64,000 nucleotides of DNA from Clostridia bacterium (GCA_016297005.1 JAEDHK010000002.1:132837-196836), one strand, 5' to 3'; numbered from the stretch's first letter, positions 8,060 to 29,700 are shown. Notes: generated by a model not told the origin, from the letters alone. A program made the numbers and translations.

Positions 8060-8135
8060 GGGATATTAACTCAGCTGGTAGAGTGTCTTCTTGACGTGGA
8101 GAAAGTCAGCGGTTCGAGTCCGTTATATCCCACCA
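8060..8135 (+). tRNA. tRNA-Val (anticodon GAC), CCA encoded
   Basis: Hand-folded cloverleaf. Acceptor GGGATAT/ATATCCC, D arm ACTC..GAGT, anticodon stem TCTTC/GGAGA with loop TTGACGT, T arm AGCGG-TTCGAGT-CCGTT, 3' ACCA. Confidence 0.9.
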
Positions 8136-8141
8136 AAAAGG

Positions 8142-8176
8142 ACCTAAGACGAACTTGTCTTAGGTTCTTTTTTATA
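8142..8176 (+). terminator. rho-independent terminator after tRNA-Val
   Basis: ACCTAAGAC-gaactt-GTCTTAGGT followed by TCTTTTTT. Confidence 0.75.
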
Positions 8177-8203
8177 CGATCCGAAAGCGAGAGCGAAGGA
8201 TCG

Positions 8204-8405
8204 GTATGTAATCATGCCCATGGCGTGTGTGTAATTGCAAGGCAAAACCTTGCGTATGTAATCGCCCAGTAAGAGCGTATGAATTTTCCGTTATCGGATC
8301 GATTACATACAAAATTGCGTTTTGATTACATACAGCGTTTCATACTGATGACATACATTGCTTATGCAATGATTACATGCAACGCATTTTGCGTTGATTA
8401 TGGAT
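8204..8405. repeat. symmetric array of a 10-12 bp motif (GC)GTATGTAATC / GATTACATAC with ~23-bp period
   Basis: Forward copies at 8204, 8227 (gtgtgtaatt), 8254 and 8277 (gtatgaattt). Inverted copies at 8301, 8324, 8347 (gatgacatac), 8371 (gattacatgc) and 8396 (weak). Paired copies are mirror-symmetric about ~8292. Confidence 0.8.
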
Positions 8406-8421
8406 AGTTGATTAATAAACA

Positions 8422-8430
8422 TGTTATAAT
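8422..8430 (+). promoter_or_regulatory. extended -10 promoter element (TGtTATAAT) for the phosphoesterase gene
   Basis: TG at 8422-8423 and TATAAT at 8425-8430, about 45 nt upstream of the ATG at 8476. No good -35. Confidence 0.4.
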
Positions 8431-8475
8431 AGAAAAGCAAAGAATATCGACGAAAGACATGGAAAGGACTAAAAG

Positions 8476-9204
8476 ATGAAAAAATTATTTGTTGTCGCGG
8501 ATGTTCACTCTTTTTACGAGGAAATGCTCGCTGCGTTAAAAGATAAGGGATTTGATCGTGATGATCCTGATCATATTTTTGTATCGCTCGGGGACTTATT
8601 GGATCGTGGACCGGCGCCGCTGAAGTGCCTTACTTTTGTGAACTCTCTTCCGATTGACCGAAAAATTTTGATTCGCGGCAACCACGAAGACCTTTTGGAA
8701 GAATGTCTTTTGCGGGAAGCATTTCTTTCTCACGACGTTCATAACGGGACAATGGATACTGTTCTGTCGCTCGCCGGTTCCAAAGGATACGATCTTTATC
8801 AGAAAGATACACATACGTTCTTTTCACTGGTGCGCGAAAAACCGATCTTGACGGAGTATTTGTCTGTGCTTCGTGATTATGCGGAAATTGGAGAATACCT
8901 CTTTGTCCACGGATGGATCCCCTCGAAGAAAAAATCACCGGGGAAAGACTGGCGTTTCGGAGATTGGAACCGCGCTCGTTGGTTCAACGGTATGGAAAAA
9001 TGGAAACAAGGCGCGAGGTTACGCAATAAAACGATTCTGTGCGGGCATTGGCATACCAGTTGGGGACATTCCGTCCTTGAAAAACGCGGTTTTGAGTTCG
9101 GTGAAAAAGCCGATTTTTCACCGTTCATCCAACCGGGCATCGTCGCTCTCGACGCTTGCACGAATTATTCCCATCAAGTAAATTGTTTTGTAATTGAGAT
9201 ATAA
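8476..9204 (+). CDS. metallophosphoesterase (PPP-family Ser/Thr phosphatase / ApaH-PrpE-like)
   Basis: Motifs in order: VVADVHS, GDLLDRGP, RGNHE, VHGW, CGHWH. Confidence 0.8.
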   Translation: MKKLFVVADVHSFYEEMLAALKDKGFDRDDPDHIFVSLGDLLDRGPAPLKCLTFVNSLPIDRKILIRGNHEDLLEECLLREAFLSHDVHNGTMDTVLSLAGSKGYDLYQKDTHTFFSLVREKPILTEYLSVLRDYAEIGEYLFVHGWIPSKKKSPGKDWRFGDWNRARWFNGMEKWKQGARLRNKTILCGHWHTSWGHSVLEKRGFEFGEKADFSPFIQPGIVALDACTNYSHQVNCFVIEI

Positions 9205-9208
9205 GGGT

Positions 9209-9964
9209 TTAGCTATTGCAGATAGTAAGCATTTCTTCTTTGCTGACGTTATATCGATAAAAATTTAATGATGACGGACTTTTCCCTTTATAATTCGCCC
9301 ATTCTTTTTCGGCGTCGTTCTCGCTCCCTTCATAGTACAAAACGGAATACTTCGGCAATGCTCCGATATAATTTGAAAAATGTAACTTTGGTATCCAAAA
9401 CTTAATACCATAGTTTTCCTTATCTATTATTTTAGATATATCCGGATCGATATATATTTGTCCGTTTTCATATCTTTTTATGGTTGGGATAAAAGAGCTT
9501 CCGGCAGCATGAAAGGCACCTGGTGCTATATCCTTAAGCGAGCGAGGCAAAACAACACACCGCAGATTTACGCAAAATTCAAAAGCGTCGCCGCCGATTG
9601 TTTCTACCTTATCCGGTAGAACGATATGGCGCAAGTTATGACACATAGCAAACGCGCCTCCGCCTATTTCCGTCAGACTATTCGGTAAGAAAATTTCGGT
9701 AAGATTTTCACATCGACAAAAGGCGAAGTCTTCAATCGTCTTCGCCCCTTCTGCAATAAAGACCTTTTCGACGTATTTGAATTTTTCAAACGCGCTTGTT
9801 GCCACGCCGACGACAGGCGAACCCAAATAGGACTCGGGAATGTGTACGTAACTATCGTTAAACACCTCTACGTCGGGACCGGTAACGTAAAAACCGTCTT
9901 CCCGTCGTCTCATTTTCAATTGTCCCATCTTGTCGTGGTTCTTATATTCTTCTTTCCCTGCCAC
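9209..9964 (-). CDS. BspA-type leucine-rich-repeat protein without signal peptide (predicted cytoplasmic)
   Basis: About 23-aa LRR_5-like repeats, e.g. IEDFAFCRCENLTEIFLPNSLTEIGGGAFAMCHNLRHIVLPDKVETIGGDAFEFCVNLRCVVLP. No hydrophobic N-terminus. The GTG start at 9964 abuts the stop of the upstream small ORF; an alternative ATG lies at 9928. Confidence 0.7.
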   Translation of the reverse strand: MAGKEEYKNHDKMGQLKMRRREDGFYVTGPDVEVFNDSYVHIPESYLGSPVVGVATSAFEKFKYVEKVFIAEGAKTIEDFAFCRCENLTEIFLPNSLTEIGGGAFAMCHNLRHIVLPDKVETIGGDAFEFCVNLRCVVLPRSLKDIAPGAFHAAGSSFIPTIKRYENGQIYIDPDISKIIDKENYGIKFWIPKLHFSNYIGALPKYSVLYYEGSENDAEKEWANYKGKSPSSLNFYRYNVSKEEMLTICNS

Positions 9965-10126
9965 TTATTGGGGGACAATATTGTAAAACTTAAACTGTGA
10001 ATTTCTCAGTTTATTTTGTGCCCAAGCTTCTGCATAATTACGATTGGCTGTAATTGTTTCGGTAAAAGCAGGCGCACCACTACGAAGCGCTGATTCTGTA
10101 AGATAGTAACATATTTTCCATTTCAT
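9965..10126 (-). CDS. small hypothetical protein (53 aa; below the ORF-track cutoff)
   Basis: Hand-translated as MKWKICYYLTESALRSGAPAFTETITANRNYAEAWAQNKLRNSQFKFYNIVPQ*. GAGGT sits 9 nt upstream. Its stop is directly adjacent to the GTG of the LRR gene. Confidence 0.45.
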   Translation of the reverse strand: MKWKICYYLTESALRSGAPAFTETITANRNYAEAWAQNKLRNSQFKFYNIVPQ

Positions 10127-10444: not shown

Positions 10445-11056
10445 CTATACATATTTGGTCTTTTCAATATCCCAATTATAAATCTCGATATCATATTTCC
10501 TATATACTTCTTCAATTATTTCTTTTGCACTGTTATAATTTCTCTTTTTTTTCTCTATTATTTTTCTATCTTCATTCTTCAACATTCTGCAAATACATAT
10601 TTTATTTAATATTGGTATTACCGTTTCATAAGTGACTTCAGATAATTCACATAGCTCATCAATAATCATATTCAAAGGTATAATATGTTCTTCATGAAAA
10701 ACGTCTCTATATACAAAACGTGGATGTTCTTTTGTATGTATTTCGCCATTCTTTTTAGAAGAATTCCCAATATAACGATCTAAAATTACATCACTATCAA
10801 TATCACATTCAACTATTTCTCTGTAATGATAATGGTCTATCGGTTTTGAAGTGATTTTTTCCCATGTTTGTTTTGCCGCTACTGTTATTAAATATCTATC
10901 ATTAATTTGATAATTTCGTAAAATTTGTCCTAATAAATATCTACATTTCCATATTCTGAAACTGCTCTGTTCATTCGGCTCAATAACGTCATTCTTTTTT
11001 TGACATGCCTTGATAAAAGTAATAATAATATCTAATACAACATTGTTTTCTTCCAT
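10445..11056 (-). CDS. hypothetical protein with HNH/DUF1524-like His-Me finger motif
   Basis: Start trimmed to the ATG at 11056 (RBS AAAGGAG, MEENNVVLD...). FHEEHIIP (aa 120-127) followed by RMLKNEDRKI resembles the (D/E)EHIxP...N signature of DUF1524/GmrSD-type HNH nucleases. Overlaps the WYL gene end by 15 nt. Confidence 0.45.
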   Translation of the reverse strand: MEENNVVLDIIITFIKACQKKNDVIEPNEQSSFRIWKCRYLLGQILRNYQINDRYLITVAAKQTWEKITSKPIDHYHYREIVECDIDSDVILDRYIGNSSKKNGEIHTKEHPRFVYRDVFHEEHIIPLNMIIDELCELSEVTYETVIPILNKICICRMLKNEDRKIIEKKKRNYNSAKEIIEEVYRKYDIEIYNWDIEKTKYV

Positions 11057-11069
11057 TTTTTCTTCTCCT

Positions 11070-12050
11070 TTATTGATTATATTTTTCCGTTGCCCAACAT
11101 AAGTTTTCTTTGACTTTTTCACGCAATGTGGTCGGCGTAAGTATTTCCACGGCATTGAGATACTGCATTGCCCAAAATTCCATCGCGTGCAAACTTGTTT
11201 TTACAGAGATAATGAATTTATCCTTTTCGGGTTGAATGTCGATATTTTTACCGAACCAATCGACAACCTGATCAATTGCCCACGGCTCGGCGCGAAAGGT
11301 GACAGGTTGCGGCTCGTCGGCGAACATATAGGGCATTTGACAGGAAAATCGGTTATAATCTATTCCGTTTTCAAACCCTTCGATGGTACGAATAGGCACT
11401 TGCGCTATCTCTTTTTTCTCTATCTTCGTGATACGGTCGAGACGGTAGTATTTCATCTGCTTGTAGTAGTCGTTATACGCCATAAGATAGTACCGCTGAT
11501 TATGTAGGATCATTTGATAGGGACTCGCCGTCACCCGCGAAGATCGGTGCAGTTTTTTATCCGCCCCGTACTTATTGTATTCAAAATAGACTTGTTTACC
11601 CTCGGTGATGGCTTCATCTACCACTTCCATAGTATAAAATAAGTCCTTATTGTCCGTCTTGTCCCAGTCGCCTATGCGATAAACGTACTTAACGTGCGTC
11701 TTAAAATATTTATTGGATAAACCGCATAATTTGTCTATTAAATCGGCGGAATGTTTGGTGCCGATATGCTTTCCGGCAAGAATACCGTCAATGAGCATAC
11801 GAAGCTCTACGTCCTCAAACGTCCTTTCGGCAAGATAGGAACCTTTTTTCGTCGTCACGATATCGTAACCGGCTTCGTTTAACAAAGAAATATTTCGTCC
11901 GATCGCTTTGCGCTCTATATTCAATTCGTATTCACTTTGCAGCTTCTTTACGATTTCATCGTGCGTTAAAGGGTGATCGATGTCCGTTTCCTTATTTAGT
12001 ATTTGATAAATACGTATTAAAGCAAGTTTTTTCGGTTCGGAGGTATACAT
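11070..12050 (-). CDS. WYL-domain transcriptional regulator (wHTH-WYL-WCX; YafY/BrxR/CapW-like)
   Basis: N-terminal wHTH (LALIRIYQILNKE...IERKAIGRNISLLNEAGYDI). Central WYL-like core QRYYLMAYNDYYKQMKYYRLDRI. C-terminal extension. 326 aa. Confidence 0.8.
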   Translation of the reverse strand: MYTSEPKKLALIRIYQILNKETDIDHPLTHDEIVKKLQSEYELNIERKAIGRNISLLNEAGYDIVTTKKGSYLAERTFEDVELRMLIDGILAGKHIGTKHSADLIDKLCGLSNKYFKTHVKYVYRIGDWDKTDNKDLFYTMEVVDEAITEGKQVYFEYNKYGADKKLHRSSRVTASPYQMILHNQRYYLMAYNDYYKQMKYYRLDRITKIEKKEIAQVPIRTIEGFENGIDYNRFSCQMPYMFADEPQPVTFRAEPWAIDQVVDWFGKNIDIQPEKDKFIISVKTSLHAMEFWAMQYLNAVEILTPTTLREKVKENLCWATEKYNQ

Positions 12051-12059
12051 AACGCAATA

Positions 12060-13091
12060 TTATTCCCATTCTTTGCTTCGAAGCAGTTTGGCGATTTCTT
12101 CAGAGGTAGGTTTTGTCTTATCTGTAGTTTCAAATAATTCCGTTAAATTAAAAATTCGTGAGCCCATGGGCGCTCGTGATGTGTTTTTTTTGAAGTCGGT
12201 TTCATAAAAATTGTCAACAAAAAAATAGCGGTGTTTAATATATCGAATATCCCAACCTCTTTCGAGAGCATCATCCATTGCGCGTTGAATAGTTTCCTTT
12301 CTTTTTTCAGTTAATTCCCCGCTTTCAACTTGATATTCGATCTCTCCATGGGAATTTTTTACAGCGGTTATACGGGCGATTATTTTTCCTATAGCGCGTA
12401 TGCTTTTATTAGCATAAAGTCCCAAATAATCGTGTGGACGAAATCCCCTTTCTGCGTTATCATAATAGCAGTTTTCTTTACAATTGAAGTCAATTGTTTT
12501 GCTTGCTAACTGCATTCGCAAATACTTCCAGGCGTCATAATTTGGTATCAAACCGTCATGGCAGAGAAAGTTTTTATAATCATCGAGAATTGCTTGCATT
12601 TCCATGTCTCTATCATCGATCATTGATCCAATTGAATTAGCAAGCGCTTCAAAAGTAGTTGCTTTAAATATGATTGGATGCTGATCATGCTCTTTATTGT
12701 ATTCTTCCAATTTTATTTGGAAATCCTTTACTTTTTCATCTGCAATCAATTCTGTTGACAGCGCCAAAACGACCCTGTATTTTTCATCAGAAAACGATGA
12801 TAAATGTCTTGTTAATTGATCGGTATAGAACCAGTCCGTTATTTTAGTTTCAATAACAATCTTAAAACTTTCCTGAGTAATCGTTGCGTCAGGAATACTA
12901 TTTTTACTTCCACTTTTTTCTTGTAATTTAAAATCTATTTCCGGTTCAAACGACTCTGGAAGATACTCTGTTTTCAAGAATTGATAAAATTTTCCACTTG
13001 AATATTGATAAAAACGGGATAGGAGTAACATCGTATTTGCGGTTGCCACGTTCTCTTTTTGATGATATCTTTGGAAATAATGAATATTCAT
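12060..13091 (-). CDS. hypothetical protein with N-terminal PD-(D/E)xK nuclease-like motif
   Basis: KENVATANTMLLL helix, then IPD68ATI...FKIVIE81TK83, which fits the PD...(D/E)xK pattern. The C-terminal ~200 aa are unassigned. RBS GGAG upstream. Confidence 0.45.
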   Translation of the reverse strand: MNIHYFQRYHQKENVATANTMLLLSRFYQYSSGKFYQFLKTEYLPESFEPEIDFKLQEKSGSKNSIPDATITQESFKIVIETKITDWFYTDQLTRHLSSFSDEKYRVVLALSTELIADEKVKDFQIKLEEYNKEHDQHPIIFKATTFEALANSIGSMIDDRDMEMQAILDDYKNFLCHDGLIPNYDAWKYLRMQLASKTIDFNCKENCYYDNAERGFRPHDYLGLYANKSIRAIGKIIARITAVKNSHGEIEYQVESGELTEKRKETIQRAMDDALERGWDIRYIKHRYFFVDNFYETDFKKNTSRAPMGSRIFNLTELFETTDKTKPTSEEIAKLLRSKEWE

Positions 13092-13173
13092 TTTTAAAAT
13101 CTCCTTCTTTTTTTAATATACTGGTCTTATTATACCAAAAATGTCGCAACAATTCAAGATGTATTGTACCGAA

Positions 13174-13195
13174 TTTGGGATAGAGCTTCCCATAT
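13174..13195. promoter_or_regulatory. inverted repeat TTTGGGAT-N6-TCCCATAT in the divergent promoter region (candidate operator)
   Basis: It has the same half-sites as the 10402 palindrome and overlaps a TATACT box at 13193-13198, upstream of the 13220 gene. Confidence 0.3.
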
Positions 13196-13219
13196 ACTTT
13201 TTATATCGGGAGGTAAAAT

Positions 13220-14872
13220 ATGACAAATACAGTACTATTTGATGAAAAGAACGCCGAAGAGATTTTTGAAAACCTTATTTCAACCGAAATAAAACAAAAA
13301 TATCCTAATATAACCGAAGAAATAGAAAAGCGGATCGAATACGAAAAGTCCGAAGTAAAGCGACTAGGATTTTTTCCTTATTTTTTATTTGTGCGAAAGC
13401 TTTGGGGAATTATCGAAAATGTTGATCCGTGTGCCTACGCGGACGGCGTGCAAAGCGGGTGTATTCTCAATTATCTGTTGGGTATCACCGATATCGATCC
13501 CATAGAAAACGGACTCTATTTCGAGAGTTTTATTAACGATCGTTATTATAAAAAAGATTTTCCGCATTACTTTTTTAACGTGCGCGAATCAATGTTGAAC
13601 GCGATCTGTAAAGCAATTCAAAAGGAAGTAGAGAAGAGCGGTATAGGCGTCAGAACGGAAAACCATTTCAGAAGTCATACAGTCGAACTGTATTTTGATG
13701 GAGAAAGCAGCAAGCAAGGATTCTTTATTACGCTTGGTTTGGACGAATATGCCGATCTTATTCATCTTTGCGAGGAGAAAACGGGCGTTGATTGTCCGGC
13801 ATATACCGATTATACCGATGAAAAAGTGTGGGAGTTGTTTCAAAAGGAACAATTTGAAAATCCGTTTATCGAGTATGCCAAAGAGCATCGAAAAAGCCAT
13901 CCGCATACTTTTATGCAACTTGCGGACGCTATTTCAGGTGGCTTTTTTATTTACGATTATTACAGTGACGATCAGAGTGCTTTTCTTCAATCATCATATG
14001 CGAAAGATGGATCGCCCCATTATAAAGAAGACTGGATCCGATTGGTTTCGGCGACACTCGGTATCGATAGCGCAAAAGCTCACTATTATAATCGTGAACT
14101 ATGTAGGTATCAATTATTCGGGAAGTATCTATCGAAAGATAAAGCCCTGAAAGAATTCATCGCCGACGGAGAAAAAGCCGGGTGTGAGAAATCGACTTTG
14201 CAAAAGATAGTCGATGACGTTAATCCGTACACGGTCGCATGGAAGGCAATCGTCGATACCATCGCAACGCAAATATACAAAATAGCCTATTTCCAAGCCA
14301 ATTTTCATGATGAATATGTAGCTGCGGTAAAAACTACCTATCAAGAAAAACTGAAATCGTGCCTGGATAACGGTGTCGTTATCTTTGATCTGGACACAGA
14401 CGGATTGGAACCGGTCGAGATAAAAACCGGCGACGAAGAGGTCCATTTTATTATGAAAATCGAAGCGCTCCGTATGAGAAATAATACGGTTGTTGATCGA
14501 CTTGAAACGTACGTTTACCGCGGATTGGATATACCGCCAAAACTTGCTGAAGTATTGAGGCTCAATTACGACGACCTGTGTAAAGCGATCAAGACTGACG
14601 AAGTAATGAAAAGGCTATCCGTCTTTCTCGGCAAGTTGCCCGTTATAACGCACAACGTACCTTTCGTAGAAAAATTTTTGGATTTTTATGATCAAAATCG
14701 TTTGCTCAAACGATTATATTGTGAGGACGTCATCACGTACTTCAACAAGATCATCCAACCGGACAAACCGATAAGAACGATGCGCAGTATGCGGAAAACG
14801 CTACGTATCGAGCAAACCCTCACCGACGCGGAAGCTATGCGAGAAATGGTCTGCATGCTGATAGATTTATGA
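13220..14872 (+). CDS. truncated, apparently inactivated DNA polymerase III alpha (DnaE)-like palm/fingers fused to a degenerate DnaQ-like DEDD exonuclease domain
   Basis: RLGFFPYFLFV, NYLLGITDIDPIENGLYFESFIN, FIADGEKAGC..KIVDDV and YFQANFHDEYVAAV are collinear with DnaE motifs. The catalytic PDFDVDF reads KDFPHYF. C-terminal motifs are VVIFDLDTDGL, ITHNVPFVEKFL and TLTDAEAM. RBS GGAGG. Confidence 0.6.
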   Translation: MTNTVLFDEKNAEEIFENLISTEIKQKYPNITEEIEKRIEYEKSEVKRLGFFPYFLFVRKLWGIIENVDPCAYADGVQSGCILNYLLGITDIDPIENGLYFESFINDRYYKKDFPHYFFNVRESMLNAICKAIQKEVEKSGIGVRTENHFRSHTVELYFDGESSKQGFFITLGLDEYADLIHLCEEKTGVDCPAYTDYTDEKVWELFQKEQFENPFIEYAKEHRKSHPHTFMQLADAISGGFFIYDYYSDDQSAFLQSSYAKDGSPHYKEDWIRLVSATLGIDSAKAHYYNRELCRYQLFGKYLSKDKALKEFIADGEKAGCEKSTLQKIVDDVNPYTVAWKAIVDTIATQIYKIAYFQANFHDEYVAAVKTTYQEKLKSCLDNGVVIFDLDTDGLEPVEIKTGDEEVHFIMKIEALRMRNNTVVDRLETYVYRGLDIPPKLAEVLRLNYDDLCKAIKTDEVMKRLSVFLGKLPVITHNVPFVEKFLDFYDQNRLLKRLYCEDVITYFNKIIQPDKPIRTMRSMRKTLRIEQTLTDAEAMREMVCMLIDL

Positions 14873-14882
14873 AGAAGCGGTA

Positions 14883-14911
14883 TTGACAAAAATGCAAGTT
14901 TTCGCTATTAT
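14883..14911 (+). promoter_or_regulatory. near-consensus sigma-A promoter
   Basis: TTGACA (14883-14888), 17-nt spacer, TATTAT (14906-14911). This leaves a ~190-nt leader before the ATG at 15105. Confidence 0.6.
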
Positions 14912-15104
14912 ATAAATAATAAAAAGCATGTAAGAAGATAAATAATCATGCATAAACATGGAAAGTTGTAACAATGATTATTCTATTAATAAAGAACTGC
15001 GCATATACGGTATACCGCATCCGTCGGGATACGGATTTAAACCAAAAGAATATAATAAAGTATTAGGAAACTTAATTTCAGATATACAATTTTAAGGAGG
15101 GATT

Positions 15105-15875
15105 ATGTGCTTAGATGATAAAAAAAACTATTTAGACAAAATGCCACAATTATTAAAGGAATGGCAAGCTTCTGCGGAAAAGGATAATATTTATAAAAAT
15201 CAAGGCAATCCCTGTGCAAACATTTTTATTTCCGATGGCATCGCACATCCCGACACCTGGTTTGCACAAGAAATCCGACCTTTGTTTGTTCTTAAAGAAG
15301 CGTATGATAAAAGTGGTGAACAAAAACCTTGGGATGAAGTAAAATGGTTTTTAACGACAAAAGAAGAAAACGGCGATGAAAGCGGAGGGAAAACCGGAAA
15401 AATTAGAGTTCAGACTTGGAAAAACATATGTCAGTGGTCCTCTTATATATATGAGGGGAACTACGATTGCGATACAGTATGGGAAAATAAAAACCTCGGA
15501 AAAATTGCCCTTATCAATATAAAAAAATATGGCGGTTGCGAGCGGTCCTCGTCTAAAGATTTGCAAAAACATGCGGAAAAATATTCTAAATATATTTATG
15601 AACAAATCAGACTTATAAAACCGACAATTATAATTTGCGGATATACCGGATGGTTGTTGGATATTGTTTGGGAAAAAGCAAGTAATAATAAACAGGCAAT
15701 AAGAAAGAATTGTTGCGGTGGACACGTGTACGACGTTCCCGAAATAAATGCAAAACTGATCGATTTCTGGCATCCCTCGGCACGAATCAAAGGCTTAAAG
15801 GGAGCTTTTATTGCGGATGTTGATATCGCTTTAGAAAGAACCGATACGAATGAAACAAATGACGTATGTAAATAA
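15105..15875 (+). CDS. hypothetical protein, possible divergent uracil-DNA-glycosylase-superfamily fold
   Basis: Strong RBS AAGGAGG. Order of elements: PLFVLKEAYD (cf. motif 1 GEAPG/GQDPY), ALINIKKYGG, KPTIIICGYTG, FWHPSAR (cf. motif 2 HPSP). Motif-level only. Confidence 0.35.
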   Translation: MCLDDKKNYLDKMPQLLKEWQASAEKDNIYKNQGNPCANIFISDGIAHPDTWFAQEIRPLFVLKEAYDKSGEQKPWDEVKWFLTTKEENGDESGGKTGKIRVQTWKNICQWSSYIYEGNYDCDTVWENKNLGKIALINIKKYGGCERSSSKDLQKHAEKYSKYIYEQIRLIKPTIIICGYTGWLLDIVWEKASNNKQAIRKNCCGGHVYDVPEINAKLIDFWHPSARIKGLKGAFIADVDIALERTDTNETNDVCK

Positions 15876-15966
15876 CCCTCTCTTATCTGTAATTTTTAAA
15901 TAAGATCCTTTATTTATCCCTTAAATGGGACAATCGCTCCTTTATACTGGAACAAAGGAGCTTTTT

Positions 15967-16551
15967 ATGAAATGCAAAGTTTGTGGGCATGAAAATCAAG
16001 AAGGTAGTACCTTTTGCGCTAATTGCGGTTCGGTATTGAAAAACGAACCATGCTCGGCGATTTACGAGAGCCGTCCAGAAGAAGAGGAACCGCATTCGGA
16101 CAATAAAGCCACTTCCGTGGCAACGATGACAAAAAGAAAGAGAATAATAGGTATCGTTATTGTTTGTATACTGCTTTTTTCTGCGCCGTTTTTGATAAAT
16201 TCTTTGTTATCGGGTGGACTTTTTCACTCAAACGTAAAGAAATACGTTTGCAATGCCGGCACCGATGCGGAATCCTATTTTGAAGTTAATTTTAATAATA
16301 ACACGTATAAATATGTAGGTTCAAACGTCGGAAGAAGAAACAGCACTTTTCACGGTTTTTTTATAGGCGGTGTGTTAGAGACAAACGGTATGATTTCTTT
16401 GCAAAAGACGGTAAACGGCGTAAAATATTATACTTTTACCAATAATCCGTGGGAAGATTTCGGCTACTATATCCTTATAGACGACAATGCGGGTTTATTG
16501 CTCGTATATGTGAATGATTACTTCAAATATGAATTCAAATTACAGCAATAA
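15967..16551 (+). CDS. zinc-ribbon membrane protein (hypothetical)
   Basis: Start trimmed to the ATG at 15967 (RBS AAAGGAG). MKCKVCGHENQEGSTFCANCG zinc ribbon, one TM (IIGIVIVCILLFSAPFLI), then an extracytoplasmic domain. Confidence 0.6.
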   Translation: MKCKVCGHENQEGSTFCANCGSVLKNEPCSAIYESRPEEEEPHSDNKATSVATMTKRKRIIGIVIVCILLFSAPFLINSLLSGGLFHSNVKKYVCNAGTDAESYFEVNFNNNTYKYVGSNVGRRNSTFHGFFIGGVLETNGMISLQKTVNGVKYYTFTNNPWEDFGYYILIDDNAGLLLVYVNDYFKYEFKLQQ

Positions 16552-16559
16552 TTTTTATT

Positions 16560-16709
16560 GAAAAATACACCCTAATCGAGTTTATTGTACATAACGGCGT
16601 GATGAAAGACCTGTCTGTCTTGCAAAAAACGCCGTTTACCGATCATGGTAGCGTAGTTGAGATTTTCGACGACATCACCATTTGGCTCGGTATCAAATCT
16701 ATTATTTAA
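16560..16709 (+). pseudogene. remnant of a restriction-enzyme R-subunit C-terminus (HsdR/EcoEI_R_C-like)
   Basis: Hand translation gives ...EFIVHNGVMKDLSVLQKTPFTDHGSVVEIFDDITIWLGIKSII*. This matches the recalled HsdR C-terminal pattern (NGvM...L...PFTD.G....lFdd). No start codon and no upstream body. Confidence 0.45.
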
Positions 16710-17102
16710 AAAAACAATGAAAACGCCATCGCGGCATAACTATTCGTTTTACGTTAGACCTTGCCCATCAACGACAACCTGAAACGAACCACCGTTTTGG
16801 GTTGTTATTTTTTTACGCGTTTCCTCCTTTTGCGGTGTTTTTTGATTCTCATGCGCCCTTTTTAAAATCGTCGTTTTACAGTGTATTCTTAACCAGAGGA
16901 GCGGAGCCGACTTGTTTCAAGCAGTCATATCGTCGCCATAACTATATTACTGTTTTTCACTGAACCGCGGCATCATAAACATGAGATAATGATTTTGAAA
17001 TATTCATAAGTATTGCCATTCTGGTTTATTCTAAATATGCAAGTTGATAGATTTGACATAGTGTGCTATAATATCATTATAAGTAAAAAAAGGAGAAGAA
17101 AT

Positions 17103-18023
17103 ATGAAAAAGCGCTGTTTTATTTTTTTTCTGACCGTAATTTTTACAATTATTTTGCTTGCAACGTTGATTGCTTGCGAAAACGCCGACAAAAACGATAT
17201 AAAAGGAACTTACGAACTCACCACGTGGGATTATTATTACGAGGACGACGTGGCTACCGATATTATGGAGAGGGACGAGGTCAAGGCATACGTCGTCATC
17301 GCGGGGCAAGACAGGGGCTTCTACGTTTATCAATCAAAATCGACTCCGCTCTATTGCAGACAAGTAAAGGTAGAGTTGGAGTATTCGTCAAGCGACCCCG
17401 AAAAGATAATTGTAGTCAGGCTAAATGACGGTATGGGGTGGAAAATTTCCTTTACAACCAGTAAAATTTCCAAAGACGTCAAGCTCAAAGACCACAAAAT
17501 CAAGTTTTTGGATCAAAAGAAAAGTCTGAAAGAATTCACCCGCATTTCCAAAGCAACCGACCTGAGCACGGTCAATAAAGAAGTCGGCGCGACTTTGACT
17601 TACGTAGATTATGAGCACGCGCCTTTCGACTGTTGGTACGAATACGTATATGAAGTATCCGATTATGAGCACTACGACGAGATCGACAAATACGTCTATT
17701 ACTTTGTCAAAACCAACGTTACAACCAATAAGGCGACGGCTTATTATTGTCTCAAAAGCGACTTGGTACAAAGAACGACTACCCTCGACACTTCGCTTGA
17801 CCTGGCTCAGAATGAATTTACGATAGGGGAAACTACGTTCTCAATCTCGTATGAAAACGACGACTGCATGTTATCCAACGTACAAACCGTCAGCCAGAGC
17901 GAAGCAGACCGGTACGACGTAACGACCTGGCTTTCCAGAATAGCGTCCGTCGACGATATAGACGCCCTCTGCGCCGAGAGATTGGAAGAGTATAGAACGT
18001 ATCTGGCACAATCTTCCAACTAA
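17103..18023 (+). CDS. lipoprotein (hypothetical)
   Basis: Start trimmed to the ATG at 17103 (RBS AAAGGAG). Signal peptide with lipobox LLATLIAC. Confidence 0.65.
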   Translation: MKKRCFIFFLTVIFTIILLATLIACENADKNDIKGTYELTTWDYYYEDDVATDIMERDEVKAYVVIAGQDRGFYVYQSKSTPLYCRQVKVELEYSSSDPEKIIVVRLNDGMGWKISFTTSKISKDVKLKDHKIKFLDQKKSLKEFTRISKATDLSTVNKEVGATLTYVDYEHAPFDCWYEYVYEVSDYEHYDEIDKYVYYFVKTNVTTNKATAYYCLKSDLVQRTTTLDTSLDLAQNEFTIGETTFSISYENDDCMLSNVQTVSQSEADRYDVTTWLSRIASVDDIDALCAERLEEYRTYLAQSSN

Positions 18024-21069: not shown

Positions 21070-21486
21070 TTATCTAAGTATGACGCTATGTGATACCGGG
21101 CAGATCTTTTCTCCCGCGGCAAGGACGATACAAGAGTCGTGCTTATATTCGCGCACAAAGTCTCCCATTCTGATATTGAACGCGGACGCGACCTCCTGCG
21201 CGGCAAGAATAGTATACATGCCGGGTAAGATCCCGTCCTTCTCTCCGACGAGGTAGGTTTTTCCTTTTTCCAGAATGATATCCCCTTCCCTGTGCGTTAT
21301 GGCGACTTTGCCGTTTTCCGTTTCGGTTTTTTCTCCATAAGAGTATCTTACGCCGTCTTTAACGTATACGGCATGCTTGTCGGCTTTCTTTTTCTTGTTG
21401 TTTTTCAAAAGGATTCCGATCAAGGCGAGCGCCAGAACAAAAATAACGACGCTTTCGATAATGATAACGATCAGTTCGGTCGTCAT
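21070..21486 (-). CDS. single-pass membrane protein (positional YdjH analogue)
   Basis: N-terminal TM (LIVIIIESVVIFVLALALIGILL) followed by a beta-rich domain. ATGA overlap with the upstream gene. Confidence 0.5.
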   Translation of the reverse strand: MTTELIVIIIESVVIFVLALALIGILLKNNKKKKADKHAVYVKDGVRYSYGEKTETENGKVAITHREGDIILEKGKTYLVGEKDGILPGMYTILAAQEVASAFNIRMGDFVREYKHDSCIVLAAGEKICPVSHSVILR

Positions 21487-22574
21487 GAGTTACCTCCGAG
21501 CAAACAGATTGCTACGATACCGGCGATAACGGCCAGTCCCGCAAGAACGACGAGCGCGACTTTGAGCGGCGAGATCGGCACTTTTCCGGTGGTCCTACCG
21601 TTCCGTCCGTTCACAAAAAAGTTATATAATTTTTCTTTGAAGCTGAAATGCCCTATGTAAAGGGGTAACAGCACGTACTTATAAGTAACGTTATCATAGC
21701 TGACGGTCATACTGAATTTTTCTACGACGTCGTACGAATATTTTGACAGGATCTGCGTCCTCAGCTTCGCCCACATAATACCTTTTGCCTCTTCCCAGCA
21801 GGTCTTTCCGTCGCGCGTGTACTGCGTTGCCGAAAATCCGTACAGATAATCGGGAGAATACTTCTGCGAAGAATTGGTGTCAAACGGTTGGATCTTGTTC
21901 AGATCCTTTTGCGATATTTTTTCGGAAGCCTGTACCAGAACGTCGTCGTAAAACGCGTCGTAAACGCCGCTGATTGCAAAATAGCGTATTTTACGTACCT
22001 GTTGCCTTTTTCCGTTGACAGTTCTCGTTTCGTAATAATACTTTCCCAATCGTCCGCTGTACCGTCCGTGCGCATTGGCGTCGAACGTAAAGGACGGAGT
22101 ATAATTTCCGTTGATATTTTCGGGAACCGTCAAGCTTTGTTTGAATTTACGCGGAGCGAAAAACCTCTTTTTTGCCCAGGTCGCGGCGCTCTTTCCGGCT
22201 TCTTCTTTTGTTAAAGCGAACGGAAGGACCGCGTCGGGACGCATGCCGGACATACCCTCCGTCTCGATAATATTACTCGCCCCGCAATAGGCGCAACATT
22301 TGGAAATTTCGTTTTTGGAAATAACGGTCTGTGCACCGCAATTTTCGCACCTGAACGCCTTCGTCTCGGTCGCCCATGTATTTGCGCGGGCGGCGAAAAG
22401 TTCTTCAAGGTCGATTTCGGAACACTTTTTCCCCGCAATTTCCTCTTCCGTGCCGCAATAGGGGCATTTCAGTCCCCTCGTTTCCGGATCGTACACAAGA
22501 TCGGCCCCGCAAGAAGGGCACTTGGCCGTCTCCGTCGAAGCTCTTTCTTGTTCTCCCGTAAATAATTCGTCCAT
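21483..22574 (-). CDS. double zinc-ribbon protein with C-terminal TM (YdjG-like)
   Basis: CPSCGADL...CPYCG and CENCGAQ...CAYCG ribbons. C-terminal TM ALVVLAGLAVIAGIVAICLL. ATGA overlap with the SPFH gene. Confidence 0.6.
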   Translation of the reverse strand: MDELFTGEQERASTETAKCPSCGADLVYDPETRGLKCPYCGTEEEIAGKKCSEIDLEELFAARANTWATETKAFRCENCGAQTVISKNEISKCCAYCGASNIIETEGMSGMRPDAVLPFALTKEEAGKSAATWAKKRFFAPRKFKQSLTVPENINGNYTPSFTFDANAHGRYSGRLGKYYYETRTVNGKRQQVRKIRYFAISGVYDAFYDDVLVQASEKISQKDLNKIQPFDTNSSQKYSPDYLYGFSATQYTRDGKTCWEEAKGIMWAKLRTQILSKYSYDVVEKFSMTVSYDNVTYKYVLLPLYIGHFSFKEKLYNFFVNGRNGRTTGKVPISPLKVALVVLAGLAVIAGIVAICLLGGNS

Positions 22575-23602
22575 CAGATCTTACCTCCGCATTCCGGACA
22601 GAACCTGGTGCCGGGCGCCACCTTGGTGCCGCAAGCGGAACAGAAAGTCTTGATCTGCGCGCCGCATTCCGGACAGAACTTACTGGTGGAGGCGATCTGC
22701 GCCGAGCAAGAAGGACACTTGATCGTCGTGGGGGCGGCAGCGGCGGGCGTGGTCTGATTAAAAGCGGGACCGCCAAAGGCCTGAGCCATTCTCATACCCA
22801 TTCCCATGCCGAGGCCTGCGCCCATCATGCCGCCGGCGGTACCGGGGTTCCTGGCCGCTTCTTTAAGGGCATCGGCTTGCGCTTTTCGCTCGTAGATATC
22901 CATATTTTTACCGAGTATGTGGAGCGAAGTGCTTTCGTCAAGCGCTTTTTCCAACGCTTCGGGCATGGAGAAGTTCTCAAAGTTAAAGGTAACGATTTCG
23001 ATACCGGACTGACGGAATTCTTCGTTCAGCTCCCGTGCGACGAGAGATCCGAGTTCTACCAGATTACCCGCCATGTCGAGAACGGGAATCTTGCTTTCTC
23101 CCATGATATCGGTAGCTCGCGTCACGATAGAACTGCGGAGCCACTCCGAAATATCTTCGGTCCGATAAGATCTGACCGTGCCGGATATCTCTTTCATAAA
23201 ATAATACGGATCAGACACGCGGAAAGAATAGCTGCCGAAAGCGCGCACGCGCACTGCTCCGTAATCGGCGTCGCGAATAATAATGGGATTTTTCGTGCCC
23301 CATTTCTGGTTGGTAAACTGTTTGGTATTAACAAAAAAAACGTCCGACTTAAAAGGCGACTCAAAACCGTACTTCCAGGACATCAACTTGGTAAGAATGG
23401 GCACGTTGTCGGTTTCTAACGTATAATACCCGGGCAAAAATACGTCGGCCATCCGCCCTTTATCGCAAAAAACGCAGGCTTGCGACTCTCTTACGGTCAG
23501 CTTCGATCCGCGAGTAATATAATCCCGATTATTCAGGTCGTAACGATACACGATCGTATTCGTGCTGTTGTCTTTCCATTCAATTAGTTTTAACATCCCC
23601 AT
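22574..23602 (-). CDS. SPFH/band-7 domain protein with C-terminal zinc ribbons (YdjI-like)
   Basis: 342 aa with an SPFH-like body, a Gly/Met-rich linker and C-terminal CPSCSAQ...CPECG...CSACG...CPECG. Confidence 0.65.
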   Translation of the reverse strand: MGMLKLIEWKDNSTNTIVYRYDLNNRDYITRGSKLTVRESQACVFCDKGRMADVFLPGYYTLETDNVPILTKLMSWKYGFESPFKSDVFFVNTKQFTNQKWGTKNPIIIRDADYGAVRVRAFGSYSFRVSDPYYFMKEISGTVRSYRTEDISEWLRSSIVTRATDIMGESKIPVLDMAGNLVELGSLVARELNEEFRQSGIEIVTFNFENFSMPEALEKALDESTSLHILGKNMDIYERKAQADALKEAARNPGTAGGMMGAGLGMGMGMRMAQAFGGPAFNQTTPAAAAPTTIKCPSCSAQIASTSKFCPECGAQIKTFCSACGTKVAPGTRFCPECGGKI

Positions 23603-26488: not shown

Positions 26489-26565
26489 TGGTCGGAGTGA
26501 CTGGACTTGAACCAGCGGCCTCATGGTCCCGAACCATGCGCGCTACCAAACTGCGCTACACCCCG
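26489..26565 (-). tRNA. tRNA-Pro (anticodon CGG), CCA encoded
   Basis: Minus strand reads CGGGGTG-TAGCGCAGTTTGGTAGCGCG-CATGG-TTCGGGA-CCATG-AGGCC-GCTGG-TTCAAGT-CCAGT-CACTCCG-ACCA. The C1:G72 pair is typical of bacterial tRNA-Pro. Confidence 0.9.
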
Positions 26566-26767
26566 AAAACGCATCTATTTTATACCGTTTTTTTCTTTTT
26601 TGCAAGCGTTTTGCTTGAAAATCTTTTTTCGCCCTTTCCTTATTTGTTTCTTAGCTTCAAAAAATAAAAAAATCGTTGTTGACGGCGTTTGATATTTTAT
26701 GATATTATATAATAAATATTATGTTCGCCACGCGCGATACGCGCGCGAGCGCAGGTGTAATCGGGTT

Positions 26768-29700
26768 ATGAAAAAGAAACTTCTCATTTGTTTTTTCGTC
26801 GGCTTGCTCGCCCTTCTTTCGATCGGCGTTCTTGTCTCATGCAACGAATATAAGCCCGTCGACGTACCCACGCCGGATATCATCGGCGGCGACGCCGAAA
26901 ACTGCGAGCACGAATACGACGAGGGCGTCTTTTTCGAGGCGACCTGTCTTGTACGCGCGCATACCAAACACACGTGTAAAAAATGCAACAATTCTTACGT
27001 AATCTATGAAGGAGAATTCGGCCCTCACATCGAGGCGACGCGACACATTGCCGGAAAAAACTGTTTATCCTTCGGTTGCACCGAAACCTATTGCACCGTA
27101 TGTAATAACATTTTATCCACCGAGTACGATACGGAGTACGGTCCGCACTCTTACGTGAATACCAACCGAAAAGTCGCCGGAGATTGCAAAACTATCGGAT
27201 ACACCGTCTTAAAAACCTGTTCCGTCTGCAAAGAACAGATCATCGAAGCAGGAACGTACGGGGATCATAAATTAGGCAAAGCCGTCCACGTCGACCCCAC
27301 CTGCGTTTCCGAAGGATACGACGAAGCTACTTGCACCGTCTGTAACCAATATAAAGAAAAATATAACGTCGTACCGCCTTCGGACCACGATCTCAAAGAA
27401 GTTACCATGCCCGGCGCCGATTGCCAACATCTGACCGTCATCCTGTCGCGCTGTGTTAGATGCGACTACGAAAAAACGACGGAAACCTCTCTTTACGGAC
27501 CTCATGCCTTTGCGTCCGTCGACGGAGACACGCACGCTTGTTCCGTCTGCGGAACGTCCTCCTCTCATAACGTCGTTATAAAAAGCGTTTCGGACGCGGA
27601 GCATATGAGCTATTGCGACGTTTGCGGCCGTAGGCACGAAACTCAGACGCACAGTTACGGCTCGCCCGTTACGGTGGACGCGACTTGCACGCAAAACGGC
27701 TTGTCCACCTATTCTTGTAACGTGTGCGGGCATACTCATTCCGTCGTTCTCCCCGCAAAGCACGACTTCCGTTTGTCGACGGTTACCCTATCCTCCTGTG
27801 ATAAAAACGGAGACGCTACCATTGTTTGTTCTTCTTGCGGAAAGACGGAAAAAGCCCCTTTCTTCGCCCCGTCCGATTCTTCGGCGGTCGGCGTTGCTCC
27901 CGTCGTGTCGCTTCTTCCCGGCGCGCCCATAGGCAGCGGCGGCGAATACGTCTATTTCGGGTCTTATCCCTCCACCCGCGTCGTTCTGCCCACGATAACG
28001 AGCGTTCTGAATTCTTTGGCCGGCAATTTGCCTACGCCAAGTGACAACGCCGATTGGCGTCTCGCTTCTTATTGCGGAAACTCCGCCTATTCATGGTATA
28101 TCGACGTAACTCACGGCGGAGAAAAATACAGGGGATTGTATTTTACCGCCTATCGCCCCGCTCTCCTCTCCGATCAACCGGGCGCCGAACGATCTTATGT
28201 GGACGATAACGGCTACCTTGCGGGGACGGTCTATTGGTTCAGATACGAAAGTCTCCGTTGGAAGGTCCTTTCTTCCGATAACGGTTATATTCTTTTCTCC
28301 CACGCCATTACGGACGCACAGGCTCTCGGCGCTTCGCTGTCCTCCTGGGATAATTGCTCCCTGAAAGGTTATTTGGACGAAGAATTCTTTACCGTCGCTT
28401 TTTCCGACGAAGAAAAAGCGTCTGTGATCGCTACGTCCTTACTGTCGGATTCCGATCTGAAAAACGCCGACTACGGATTCCTCGGCAAAAACGTCTACGA
28501 CGAAGCGCTTTGTTTACAGACGACCGACTATGCCAAAGCGCAAGGGGCTCTTACCGGCGCGTTTTGGCTTACTCCTTCTTCCTCGACCGGAACGTACGCT
28601 CTTTCCTCTTACGGTTACGCGCTCGACCGCGCGCCCGGGCATAATTTTTCGGAAACGATCGATCCGTCCAACCTGCGCTCGCAAGCCACGTGCGTCGCGT
28701 ACGCCACCTACTATAAGGTTTGCTCGGTCTGCGGAAAACTTTCGGAAGAATATTTCAGCGACGAAGCGAACGGCTACGCCCTCCATTCTTACGCCTACTC
28801 TTATACGCCCGTTCTGCATAAATACGCATGTTCCGTCTGCGGAGAGGAGCTTCTGGAAGAGGACCATACGCTTACTCACACGGACGAACAGAACGGTCTG
28901 CATCATCGTTCCGTCTGTTCGGTCTGCGGTTATAACGCTCGGGAAGAACACGCTTTCAACGAAAGCGCCTGCTCGCTGTGCAATGTATCGAAGGTGTCGT
29001 ATACCGCTTACTGGGACGTTTCCGGCGGCACGTACGACGTCGTCGCTTATTTAAACGGCACGACTCTGACCATCCTCGGCCGTGGGGAAATGTCCGATTA
29101 TTCGACGCAGTCGCTCCCGCCCTATTCTTCTTATTCCCACACGATTACCGACGTCGTCTTCGGCGAAAACGTCACTTCGATCGGAGCGTATGCCTTTTAC
29201 GGTTTTTCAGCCCTGACCTCCGTGACCGTTCCCGAACAGATCGAAAAGATCGGCAAGTGCGCTTTCGCTCATGCCGAAAAGGTATCGTTGCTGCATTTTA
29301 AAGCCGTTTCCTGCGGTTCTTTCCCGGCGAACAATAACGTCTTTGCCAACCTGGGCGCAAACAGCGCCTCTTTGTCCGTTGTGATCGGCGAAAACGTAAC
29401 GACCGTCCCGGACTGTTTCCTTTATCCCTCCGCGGACGCCTTGCCGTCGGTCACGTCTTTGACCATCGAAAGCGAATGCCTTACTTCGATCGGCGATTAC
29501 GCTTTTTATAATCTGTCTTTACCGACCGACGTTTCTCTTCCTGATGTCCGTTCGATCGGCGATTACGCTTTTTACGGAAACGCCGCCGCCACCTCTTTTA
29601 TGCTCGGCGGCGAGCTTACTTCGGTCGGGAAATACGCCTTTTATCAGTGCGAAAACGCGACCTTCCGCGCCGGATCATACTTTACGTCGGTCGGAGAATA

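Follow-up and report, generated by a model that had tools for sequence, protein, structure and literature searches.

A gene for a DnaE-like protein in an AT-rich island

We analyzed a 64,000-nt stretch of DNA from a Clostridia bacterium (GCA_016297005.1 JAEDHK010000002.1:132837-196836; hereafter the window, from whose first letter all positions are counted). It carries a gene that an earlier reading made from the sequence alone (the sequence-only reading) had described as a short homolog of the alpha subunit of DNA polymerase III (Pol III alpha, DnaE) fused to a degenerate exonuclease domain, with the chemistry of both parts lost. The open reading frame (ORF) was found on the plus strand at exactly the coordinates given there, 13220..14872. 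It encodes 550 amino acids (aa), and its ATG is preceded, 7 nt upstream, by a strong ribosome-binding site (GGGAGG). Pfam matches, AlphaFold2 (AF2) modeling, Foldseek comparisons and the ratio of nonsynonymous to synonymous substitution rates (dN/dS) describe the product as a probable dead mini-DnaE joined to a dead DEDD exonuclease. The surroundings are the AT-rich island that had been claimed, with a GC content of 31-41% across 10-17 kb compared with 45-53% in the flanks. A divergent control region of 128 bp (13092..13219, no strand assigned), delimited with the help of a promoter scan, is common to the 550-aa gene and to a leftward operon with a WYL-domain regulator. Below, loci are designated L001 and so on, proteins P0001 and so on, and clusters of neighboring ORFs by c and a number; the 550-aa protein and its close variants are called the query family.

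The N-terminal part is a trimmed Pol III alpha core

The N-terminus matches the Pfam DNA_pol3_alpha profile (PF07733) over aa 16-108, corresponding to profile positions 3-97 of 260 (E 1.9e-15; 57.6 bits vs a cut-off of 23.9), and NCBIfam and PHROGs concur, placing it on DnaE/PolC models at model positions ~290-400. A phmmer search against the PDB aligned aa 33-118 to residues 319-406 of E. coli DnaE (E 4e-7), with a weak second stretch in which aa 312-376 pair with residues 726-792. The segment encoded at 13265..13543 (+) is the N-terminal half of the palm, and the collinearity with the DnaE palm proposed earlier for residues ~35-120 holds. The identity of the 550-aa protein to real DnaE is ~20-25%.

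Pfam recognizes nothing of the polymerase beyond residue 108, so what follows was tested separately by profile-profile comparison. A profile of aa 121-378, built from the query family and its distant relatives, was compared by hhalign with a profile of separately aligned true DnaEs. Residues 162-372 aligned with a probability of 99.0% and an E value of 5.4e-18 over 200 columns, spanning the strand of the third catalytic Asp through the end of the fingers; the query family alone gave a collinear but weak match to the true-DnaE profile (E 1.3e-3). The assignment of residues ~200-370 to the fingers in the sequence-only reading agrees with this result, and the segment at 13703..14335 (+) comprises the third-Asp palm strand, without its Asp, followed by the fingers. 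The spacing between the Asp dyad and this last palm strand is ~50 residues in the query compared with ~145 in true DnaEs, and ~95-100 residues matching the thumb are absent between the palm halves. The thumb has therefore been deleted, upstream of the third-Asp strand.

Other domains are missing as well. The protein begins at the palm, with no match to the PHP profile (PF02811), and the exonuclease domain follows directly after the fingers, with no match to PF14579 or PF01336 for the clamp-binding/helix-hairpin-helix (HhH) and OB domains. The protein is thus, as had been said of it, without PHP and much shorter than DnaE, at 550 aa compared with roughly 1000-1450 aa in C-family polymerases.

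The structure prediction that the sequence-only reading had suggested as a check was also carried out. From the five close family members alone AF2 gave an unusable model (predicted local distance difference test score, pLDDT, 41). A trimmed 26-sequence alignment gave a pLDDT of 81.7 and a predicted template modeling (TM) score of 0.80, and because that alignment contained real DnaEs, the model is consistent with the homology and not independent of it. In Foldseek the predicted structure most resembled the Pol III alpha of Taq, M. tuberculosis and E. coli together with PolC (probability 1.0, query-normalized TM ~0.5), followed by DEDDh exonucleases, namely epsilon, the PolC exonuclease, the DinG exonuclease and CRISPR DnaQ. 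A full-length alignment with whole DnaEs was dropped, as the C-terminal domains of DnaE were made to pair with the exonuclease domain in it.

Catalytic residues of both domains are replaced

Motif states were read from a computed alignment of the query family, its relatives and active enzymes. In the query family, the GS motif GRGSxAGS reads DGV(Q/E/K)SGC, the Asp dyad P-D-x-D-x-D reads P115-H-Y-F-F-N (aa 115-120), and K-M-D-F-L-G reads I-T-L-G-L, so that the third Asp is absent. In the fingers, YQEQ reads YKED, and NKSH is lost. In the pairwise phmmer alignment the dyad is displaced by two residues, which sets D113 on D401, with D403 lost either way; of the E. coli catalytic triad (D401, D403 and D555), this alignment keeps one Asp at most. 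All three polymerase substitutions noticed beforehand, in GRGSGAGS, in the metal-binding MPDFDVDF and at the FDFLGL Asp, were thus recovered by computation.

The C-terminal ~165 aa, which had been likened to a DnaQ/PolC-type exonuclease, match Pfam RNase_T (PF00929) over aa 387-529 (E 6.1e-7; 30.6 bits vs a cut-off of 24), 3'-5' exonuclease and PolC-exonuclease models in NCBIfam/PHROGs, and the CRISPR-associated DEDDh model of PADLOC (9e-8). In the predicted structure the domain resembles epsilon, the PolC exonuclease and DnaQ (Foldseek, target-normalized TM ~0.7). These matches, with an alignment to the T. maritima PolC exonuclease (2p1j), define aa 387-550 (14378..14869, +) as a degenerate DEDD exonuclease domain of the RNase_T fold. 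Its Exo II motif, HNxxFD in active enzymes, is an invariant HNVPFV across the family, and the Asp-to-Val change is seen in the 2p1j alignment too. Of Exo III (H-x4-D) the family has kept the Asp (D536) and lost the segment with the His. Exo I (D-x-E) reads D-L-D in P0001-P0003 and D-(L/V)-E in P0004 and P0005. The sequence-only reading was correct for Exo II and for the missing Exo III His; its Glu-to-Asp change in Exo I applies to three of the five members and not to the two that keep the canonical D-x-E. With two of the five DEDDh residues gone, the domain is predicted to be inactive as a nuclease, and metal binding may persist, both Exo I positions being acidic.

Both Pfam profiles, DNA_pol3_alpha and RNase_T, score above their gathering thresholds, and the catalytic residues are not intact. 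From the Pfam matches, the hhalign alignment, the AF2 and Foldseek comparisons and the motif states, we consider it very probable that the protein is a scaffold, as first proposed: a compact C-family core joined to a DnaQ-type fold, with polymerase and exonuclease chemistry both lost. An active enzyme with a non-canonical site, a nucleotidyltransferase or nuclease that uses other residues, could account for the conservation of the substituted pocket (G-x-Q-S/C-G-S/C plus an aromatic cluster), for the Exo I carboxylates and Exo III Asp that are kept, and for the canonical DxE of two members. However, none of the three metal-ligand positions of the polymerase has an acidic residue, no member has the Exo II Asp or the general-base His, and we know of no precedent for such an enzyme; we regard this possibility as very unlikely.

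We also noted, among the search matches, seven C-family homologs with altered dyads (P0068, P0113, P0153, P0049, P0050, P0104 and P0143). Their dyads read PD(I/V)(S/A)ID, LPSINID or IPFSVCVD and they keep a normal GRGS or PHP; these may be further inactivated or atypical DnaE-like proteins.

The gene is rare and under selection

Five intact variants of the 550-aa gene, 76-100% identical, were found. Compared with the L002 ortholog, dN/dS for the window gene is 0.28 overall, and by region 0.14 for aa 1-120, 0.30 for aa 121-200, 0.28 for aa 201-380 and 0.40 for the exonuclease domain. These values indicate that the protein is under purifying selection and that this is a working gene rather than a remnant. 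The family is very rare: an exhaustive HMMER search found it as one 50%-identity cluster among 1.84 billion representatives, and five sequences of the query family were all that a word-indexed search of 5.8 billion protein clusters yielded. No relatives were found in 185,579 species-representative genomes scanned with aa 110-550, or on IMG/VR viral contigs scanned with the query, P0012 and c25, both scans requiring exact peptide patterns and so missing distant ones. By the viral-contig scans, the homologs are not the ordinary prophage replication genes that the sequence-only reading had raised as a possibility.

Some ten more clusters, each a metagenomic singleton, make up the wider mini-DnaE group. 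In the HMMER search of the 1.84 billion representatives, the short proteins P0012, P0017, P0022, P0031, P0062 and P0008 align over query aa 14-375. The distant set, at ~25% identity, consists of P0012, P0017, P0022, P0031, P0048 and c25, together with the fingers-only P0062 and L010; its members have the same PHP-less, thumb-less core, mostly without the exonuclease. At the GS motif they read G-x-Q-[SC]-[GCS]-[SC] and at the dyad [FY]-P-[HYFN]-[YF]-[FYC]. Since relatives at ~25% identity show the same styles of replacement, the pocket looks remodeled and conserved, not merely decayed, and the comparison of these sequences points to a catalytic pocket that was repurposed.

These data bear on the possibility that the gene is a decaying prophage or plasmid replicase remnant without present function. 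Such a remnant would be truncated relative to DnaE, would have lost its catalytic residues and might lie in a horizontally acquired AT-rich island, all of which is seen. Yet even the variants at 76% identity retain an intact ORF, the gene has its strong ribosome-binding site, dN/dS stays below 0.41 in each domain, the replaced motifs are conserved in the distant relatives, and the exact-pattern scan found no relatives on viral contigs. On the dN/dS of 0.28 and the motif conservation we therefore reject the pseudogene reading, and we consider a remnant of any such kind extremely unlikely.

Distant mini-DnaEs recur with a partner domain and nuclease-like genes

Many of the distant relatives are associated with a further domain, here called N-dom. 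Proteins of this family are ~300 aa long and, as read from their sequences, resemble an ABC/SMC ATPase head without Walker A; an example has the motif NVIAGEDTRAVFAAL, then KPLFI..D....RQVF at the C-terminus. No Pfam or other profile match backs the ABC/SMC-head reading. N-dom is fused to, abuts or overlaps mini-DnaE proteins and was located at L034 14957-15862, L041 14515-15429, L048 13813-14676, L007 4227-5123, L010 11644-12492 and L004 9072-10100, the last being the N-terminal part of a 740-aa protein. A C-terminal half of N-dom, 170 aa long, lies between an AAA+ ATPase gene and a Macro-domain gene in L057, L073, L076 and L084. An N-dom homolog was sought in the window, and none was found there.

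The sequence-only reading had proposed looking for homologs next to WYL, PD-(D/E)xK or uracil-DNA glycosylase (UDG)-like genes or inside defense islands, and such recurrence was observed at L004, L006, L007, L009, L090 and the c25 loci. L004 encodes a protein of the c10 cluster (UDG-like, see below), a WYL protein, the 740-aa N-dom-mini-DnaE fusion and PDDEXK_4. L007 encodes an N-dom protein (298 aa), a fingers-only protein (215 aa) and PDDEXK_4, with LRR_5 and WYL genes alongside. In L090, N-dom, a mini-DnaE (416 aa) and a PDDEXK_4-like protein are found together. L006 has an AAA ATPase, a mini-DnaE (446 aa) and a UDG-like protein inside a GmrSD/SNF2/MoxR island, and in L009 a fingers-plus-exonuclease protein is followed by a UDG-like protein. 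The compact c25 proteins (~320 aa, with palm and fingers remnants) abut or overlap a c6 N-dom gene in five WYL loci, and six of the eight loci with a c10 UDG-like gene also carry a mini-DnaE or N-dom gene. The c6 protein, encoded after the compact mini-DnaE, was at one point considered UDG-like; this was rejected, as c6 belongs to the N-dom family.

A divergent WYL operon and a swappable downstream cassette

The 128-bp control region is kept in three loci, the window, L002 and L091. The promoter scan placed in it a leftward promoter-like site with its -35 hexamer at 13152-13157. An inverted repeat, ACAAT-N9-ATTGT (13149-13167), overlaps this -35 and is kept in L091; it could be a candidate operator for the WYL regulator, its 5-bp arms being within chance.

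The divergence from a WYL-linked nuclease operon reported in the sequence-only reading was reproduced, the nuclease-like assignments resting on motif. The first gene of the leftward operon (12060..13091, -; c30) encodes a 343-aa protein that is PD-(D/E)xK-like by the motif IPDA..IETK..QL..HL only, with IPDA..IETK kept in four homologs. It had no Pfam, NCBIfam or PHROG match and no cross-match to the c3 or PDDEXK_4 profiles. Weak matches to PADLOC candidate models at the locus were PDC-M15A, to this protein (1e-3), and PDC-S48 (5e-5). The 343-aa family occurs directly after the WYL gene, without a mini-DnaE, in L026 and L060. The second gene (11070..12050, -) encodes a WYL regulator (Pfam WYL 8e-13, PADLOC WYL 2e-25) of probable winged helix-turn-helix (wHTH)-WYL-WCX architecture; its WCX (1.3e-3) and HTH_11 (5e-3) matches are below the Pfam cut-offs and in the correct domain order. 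The last gene (10445..11056, -; c52; longest ORF to 11155) encodes a 203-aa protein with a DEH(I/V)IP motif like that of His-Me/GmrSD_C proteins and no profile match in Pfam, PADLOC, NCBIfam or PHROGs. It is called as a gene in L001 and L002, and homologs follow the WYL gene in L023 and L038, with an active RNase_T next in L038.

Downstream of the 550-aa gene, a 256-aa protein of the c10 cluster (15105..15875, +) was identified from the c10 profile and the NCBIfam Arch_udg model (1.5e-3). It is 38% identical to a 267-aa protein of L004. The best PDB matches of the c10 profile are family-4 UDGs, weakly (4zbx, E 0.005), and the profile of the UDG2 family, which itself matches Pfam UDG, hits c10 with an hmmsearch E value of 7e-6 and an hhalign probability of 46%. 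All c10 proteins carry HP(S/A), with KEA at motif A. On this modest evidence we describe c10 as probably UDG-superfamily-like. The rightward string ends with a zinc-ribbon membrane protein (15967..16551, +; c49; Pfam Zn_Ribbon_1), beyond which lies a terminator (16773-16806). Besides the window, L002 and L010 have c49, which may or may not be part of the module.

Comparison of the window with L002 revealed a recombination mosaic: the flanks are 75-85% identical and the 343-aa gene 99%, and within the 550-aa gene identity varies between 83% and 98% depending on the block. The segment at 14969-15907 of the window is replaced outright in L002 (11654-12524) by a gene for an unrelated, UDG2-like protein of 245 aa, which reaches 24.2 bits against the Pfam UDG cut-off of 24.3 (E 3.9e-5). 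L091 encodes a protein 84% identical to the 550-aa protein. Neither the 343-aa nor the 203-aa gene occurs there; the WYL gene itself borders the control region, in direct divergence from the gene for this protein, and a gene for a 631-aa GmrSD_N protein (8079-10034) lies downstream instead. The next position after the 550-aa gene thus acts like a cassette that can be swapped, holding c10, a UDG2-like protein or GmrSD_N, and across the window, L002 and L091 the query family keeps just one partner, the WYL regulator, together with the divergent promoter region between them. Modified phage DNA can be a target of both UDG-like glycosylases and GmrSD proteins.

The 343-aa gene itself (12060-13091 in the window, 8840-9871 in L002) differs by seven amino acids and by no synonymous change. 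This points to a very recent transfer of the segment, possibly with positive selection.

The WYL gene anchors variable cargo, much of it of defense type

Three WYL proteins are 49-72% identical, and their mini-DnaE neighbors are only ~25% identical. A scan of the species-representative genomes with the WYL alignment gave 144 species hits, so that this lineage marks the hotspot in at least 144 species of gut or rumen Clostridia, and the cargo was analyzed in the best 80 loci (L010-L089), whose WYL proteins are 53-72% identical. Nearly all of these are from metagenome-assembled genomes of gut or rumen Clostridia (Christensenella, Scatosoma, Borkfalkia, Gallimonas, Acutalibacteraceae and Oscillospiraceae). 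Clustering of the neighboring ORFs revealed that the regulator stays the same while the cargo changes. What most often follows the WYL gene is a gene for a PDDEXK_4-like protein of 339 aa. Cargo recognized by Pfam includes AAA with Peptidase_M41 and nSTAND3, DUF2779/Cas4-like proteins, GmrSD pairs, SNF2 with MoxR-AAA and VWA, UvrD with AAA and Macro, a DnaB_C/KaiC-like ATPase and an active stand-alone RNase_T. A mini-DnaE-type protein is present in six of the 80 loci (L010, L034, L041, L048, L051 and L055), and five of the six are those with c25 beside c6.

WYL regulators of the BrxR family, reported mainly in Proteobacteria, co-localize with diverse defense systems (PMC9122601), and CapW is reported to sense single-stranded DNA (ssDNA; PMC11662680). 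Taken with the cargo found here, the 550-aa gene is probably cargo of a WYL-anchored defense hotspot.

A role in host repair or damage tolerance was weighed against this. The protein would then be a WYL-controlled, ImuB-like dead scaffold, by analogy with the ImuA-ImuB-DnaE2 mutasome, working with the glycosylase-like protein and the nucleases on the cell's own DNA. The WYL regulators PafBC, DriD and SiwR drive damage responses, and the partners have repair-like folds (UDG-like, PD-(D/E)xK-like, exonuclease and UvrD). Catalytically dead polymerases as scaffolds are, moreover, an established idea (PMC12926913). A housekeeping role, however, predicts stable vertical inheritance, and what we observed is a very rare and patchy family (none in the 185,579 species representatives by exact-pattern scan, one cluster in 1.84 billion) in an AT-rich island, with downstream cassettes that are swapped, a GmrSD-type restriction gene among them, and a regulator whose other cargo is typical of defense. 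We think a repair accessory quite unlikely.

Two further observations concern the WYL islands. Stand-alone RNase_T genes occur at L038 4547-5128, L062 14552-15223 and L081 7749-8327; that of L038 is fully canonical DEDDh (Pfam E 5e-32) and adjoins a homolog of the 203-aa protein, and that of L081 is degenerate. The exonuclease module appears, from these sequences, to lose catalysis repeatedly in WYL islands. Many cargo clusters, c13, c17, c52 and c56 among them, have no Pfam match and could be unexplored defense genes.

A possible non-catalytic subunit of an anti-phage module

The explanation that best fits the whole, and to which we give an even chance, is that the selected dead core in its WYL context is a non-catalytic DNA-binding subunit of an anti-phage module. 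Somewhat less securely, we suggest that it would be a DNA-end or junction binder that acts with neighboring effectors or caps ends. The protein would bind DNA without catalysis, most plausibly at primer-template junctions or free 3' ends, such as would arise in phage replication or after base excision or cleavage, and the surviving Exo I carboxylates and Exo III Asp could keep the ability to hold a 3' terminus. The WYL regulator, in analogy to CapW and BrxR, might de-repress the locus upon ssDNA or damage. The bound protein would then cap ends, so that phage replication stalls, or alternatively would recruit or license effectors: the UDG-like or GmrSD protein encoded downstream and the PD-(D/E)xK-like and His-Me-like proteins of the WYL operon.

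Several observations weigh against this explanation. The downstream partner is not constant in the query family, a further promoter-like site lies between the 550-aa and 256-aa genes, and the 550-aa protein may act alone, with its neighbors being independent systems that share a hotspot. It is only by their motifs that the 343-aa protein is classed as PD-(D/E)xK-like and the 203-aa protein as His-Me-like. PADLOC-DB v2 found no system model among the locus proteins, giving only generic DEDDh and WYL matches, and the "defense" label is guilt by association, given that WYL regulators also govern DNA-damage regulons. As for DNA binding, the protein lacks the thumb and the clamp-binding/HhH domains, with which real Pol III alpha grips duplex DNA, and the RRAMGKK motif of the fingers is split by a six-residue insert in the query family. 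The AF2 model, with real DnaEs in its alignment, is not independent of the homology.

The conserved loss of key motifs can also be read in another way. In this case the protein would be a decoy or guard that mimics the replisome; phage inhibitors of replication or repair would bind it and so trigger the neighboring nucleases or glycosylases, and in the relatives the Walker-A-less ABC-like domain would mimic proteins of the RecF/RecN/SbcC type. That polymerase, exonuclease and ABC-like head are all conserved without their key motifs, surfaces kept and chemistry gone, is as such a decoy would require. So is the position of the genes beside effectors in defense hotspots, and the mosaic recombination within the 550-aa gene fits a target in an arms race. 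As a host mimic, though, the protein is poor, given its low identity to DnaE and its missing thumb, PHP and clamp-binding surfaces; the pocket carries a conserved new motif, which is not simple neutralization, and we know of no phage partner. A decoy therefore seems unlikely to us, if less so than a repair accessory.

More broadly, the gene may be the first example of an undescribed class of anti-phage systems in which sensing or decoy functions fall to catalytically dead copies of replisome or repair proteins, combined with swappable effectors and an ssDNA-sensing WYL regulator. The dead copies would be the Pol III alpha core, the proofreading exonuclease and, in the relatives, the Walker-A-less ABC-ATPase-like head. 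We put this forward as a doubtful but conceivable generalization.

Relation to known systems

C-family Pol III alpha proteins (DnaE1, DnaE2, DnaE3 and PolC) share with the 550-aa protein a homologous and collinear N-terminal palm half, last palm strand and fingers. They differ in having the PHP, thumb, clamp-binding/HhH and OB domains and an intact triad and GS motif; in PolC, moreover, the exonuclease is inserted in the PHP domain, whereas here it is C-terminal. A 2026 census calls PHP universal in the C-family (PMC12926913). This census and another (PMC3919608) recognize four active C-family groups; the former left sequences that were strongly diverged or truncated out of its phylogenetic analysis, and the latter excluded fragments whose active site was not intact. 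No dead C-family homolog is described in these censuses, filtered in this way, and we did not find a Pol III alpha-like domain in any system in the literature on defense systems.

DEDDh exonucleases of the DnaQ/epsilon type (the PolC exonuclease, the DinG N-terminal exonuclease and CRISPR DnaQ) have in common with the C-terminal domain the RNase_T fold, Exo I and the Exo III Asp, and differ in the Exo II Asp, which is Val in the 550-aa family, and in the Exo III His segment, which that family lacks. ImuB-like dead scaffolds are alike in that a polymerase fold is selected without its catalytic residues, with partners in DNA metabolism and a stress-responsive regulator. ImuB, however, belongs to the Y family, has the whole fold and a clamp-binding motif, and partners an active DnaE2; the 550-aa protein is C-family and heavily trimmed, has no active polymerase partner nearby and lies in a defense hotspot. 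Like BrxR/CapW-type regulators, the window regulator combines WYL with weak HTH/WCX matches and is constant while its cargo, much of it known defense genes, varies; it represents a Clostridia-specific lineage, and mini-DnaE cargo is not among the systems described with BrxR/CapW. The distant mini-DnaEs have the core, the replaced motifs and the WYL, PD-(D/E)xK and UDG-like neighbors in common with the query, and differ in that N-dom is fused or adjacent and the exonuclease mostly lacking, whereas the window has no N-dom gene.

Dead polymerase paralogs such as ImuB and WYL-anchored defense islands were already known; a dead, trimmed C-family core is not described in the literature searched. C-family polymerases have been treated as strictly replicative or translesion enzymes, always with PHP. 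If our reading is true, a selected, trimmed and dead core would be the first non-enzymatic offshoot of the family, comparable to ImuB in the Y family. It raises the hypothesis that bacteria may turn the DNA-recognition shell of their replicase against phages, either detecting phage replication or blocking it, which the links to other motif-less proteins and to swappable effectors support. The conserved WYL gene is, in addition, a marker for a rich and largely unannotated defense hotspot in uncultured gut Clostridia.

Other features of the window

A tRNA-Val gene at 8060-8135, ~2 kb before the AT-rich island and just ahead of Metallophos and LRR_5 genes, may mark a former site of integration. 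On the downstream side, ~7 kb away, the window encodes a zinc-ribbon-bearing Band_7 (SPFH) protein and a 363-aa partner at 21483-23602 (-), with small DUF2975 and HTH genes immediately past this module in the L001 gene calls. L004 has a Band_7_1 module with an HTH gene ahead of it at 14009-17487, just downstream of its mini-DnaE locus, and the Band_7 module may be another island-associated module. Finally, a very long ORF of 2714 aa at 26699-34843 (+) adjoins a tRNA-Pro gene (26489-26565).

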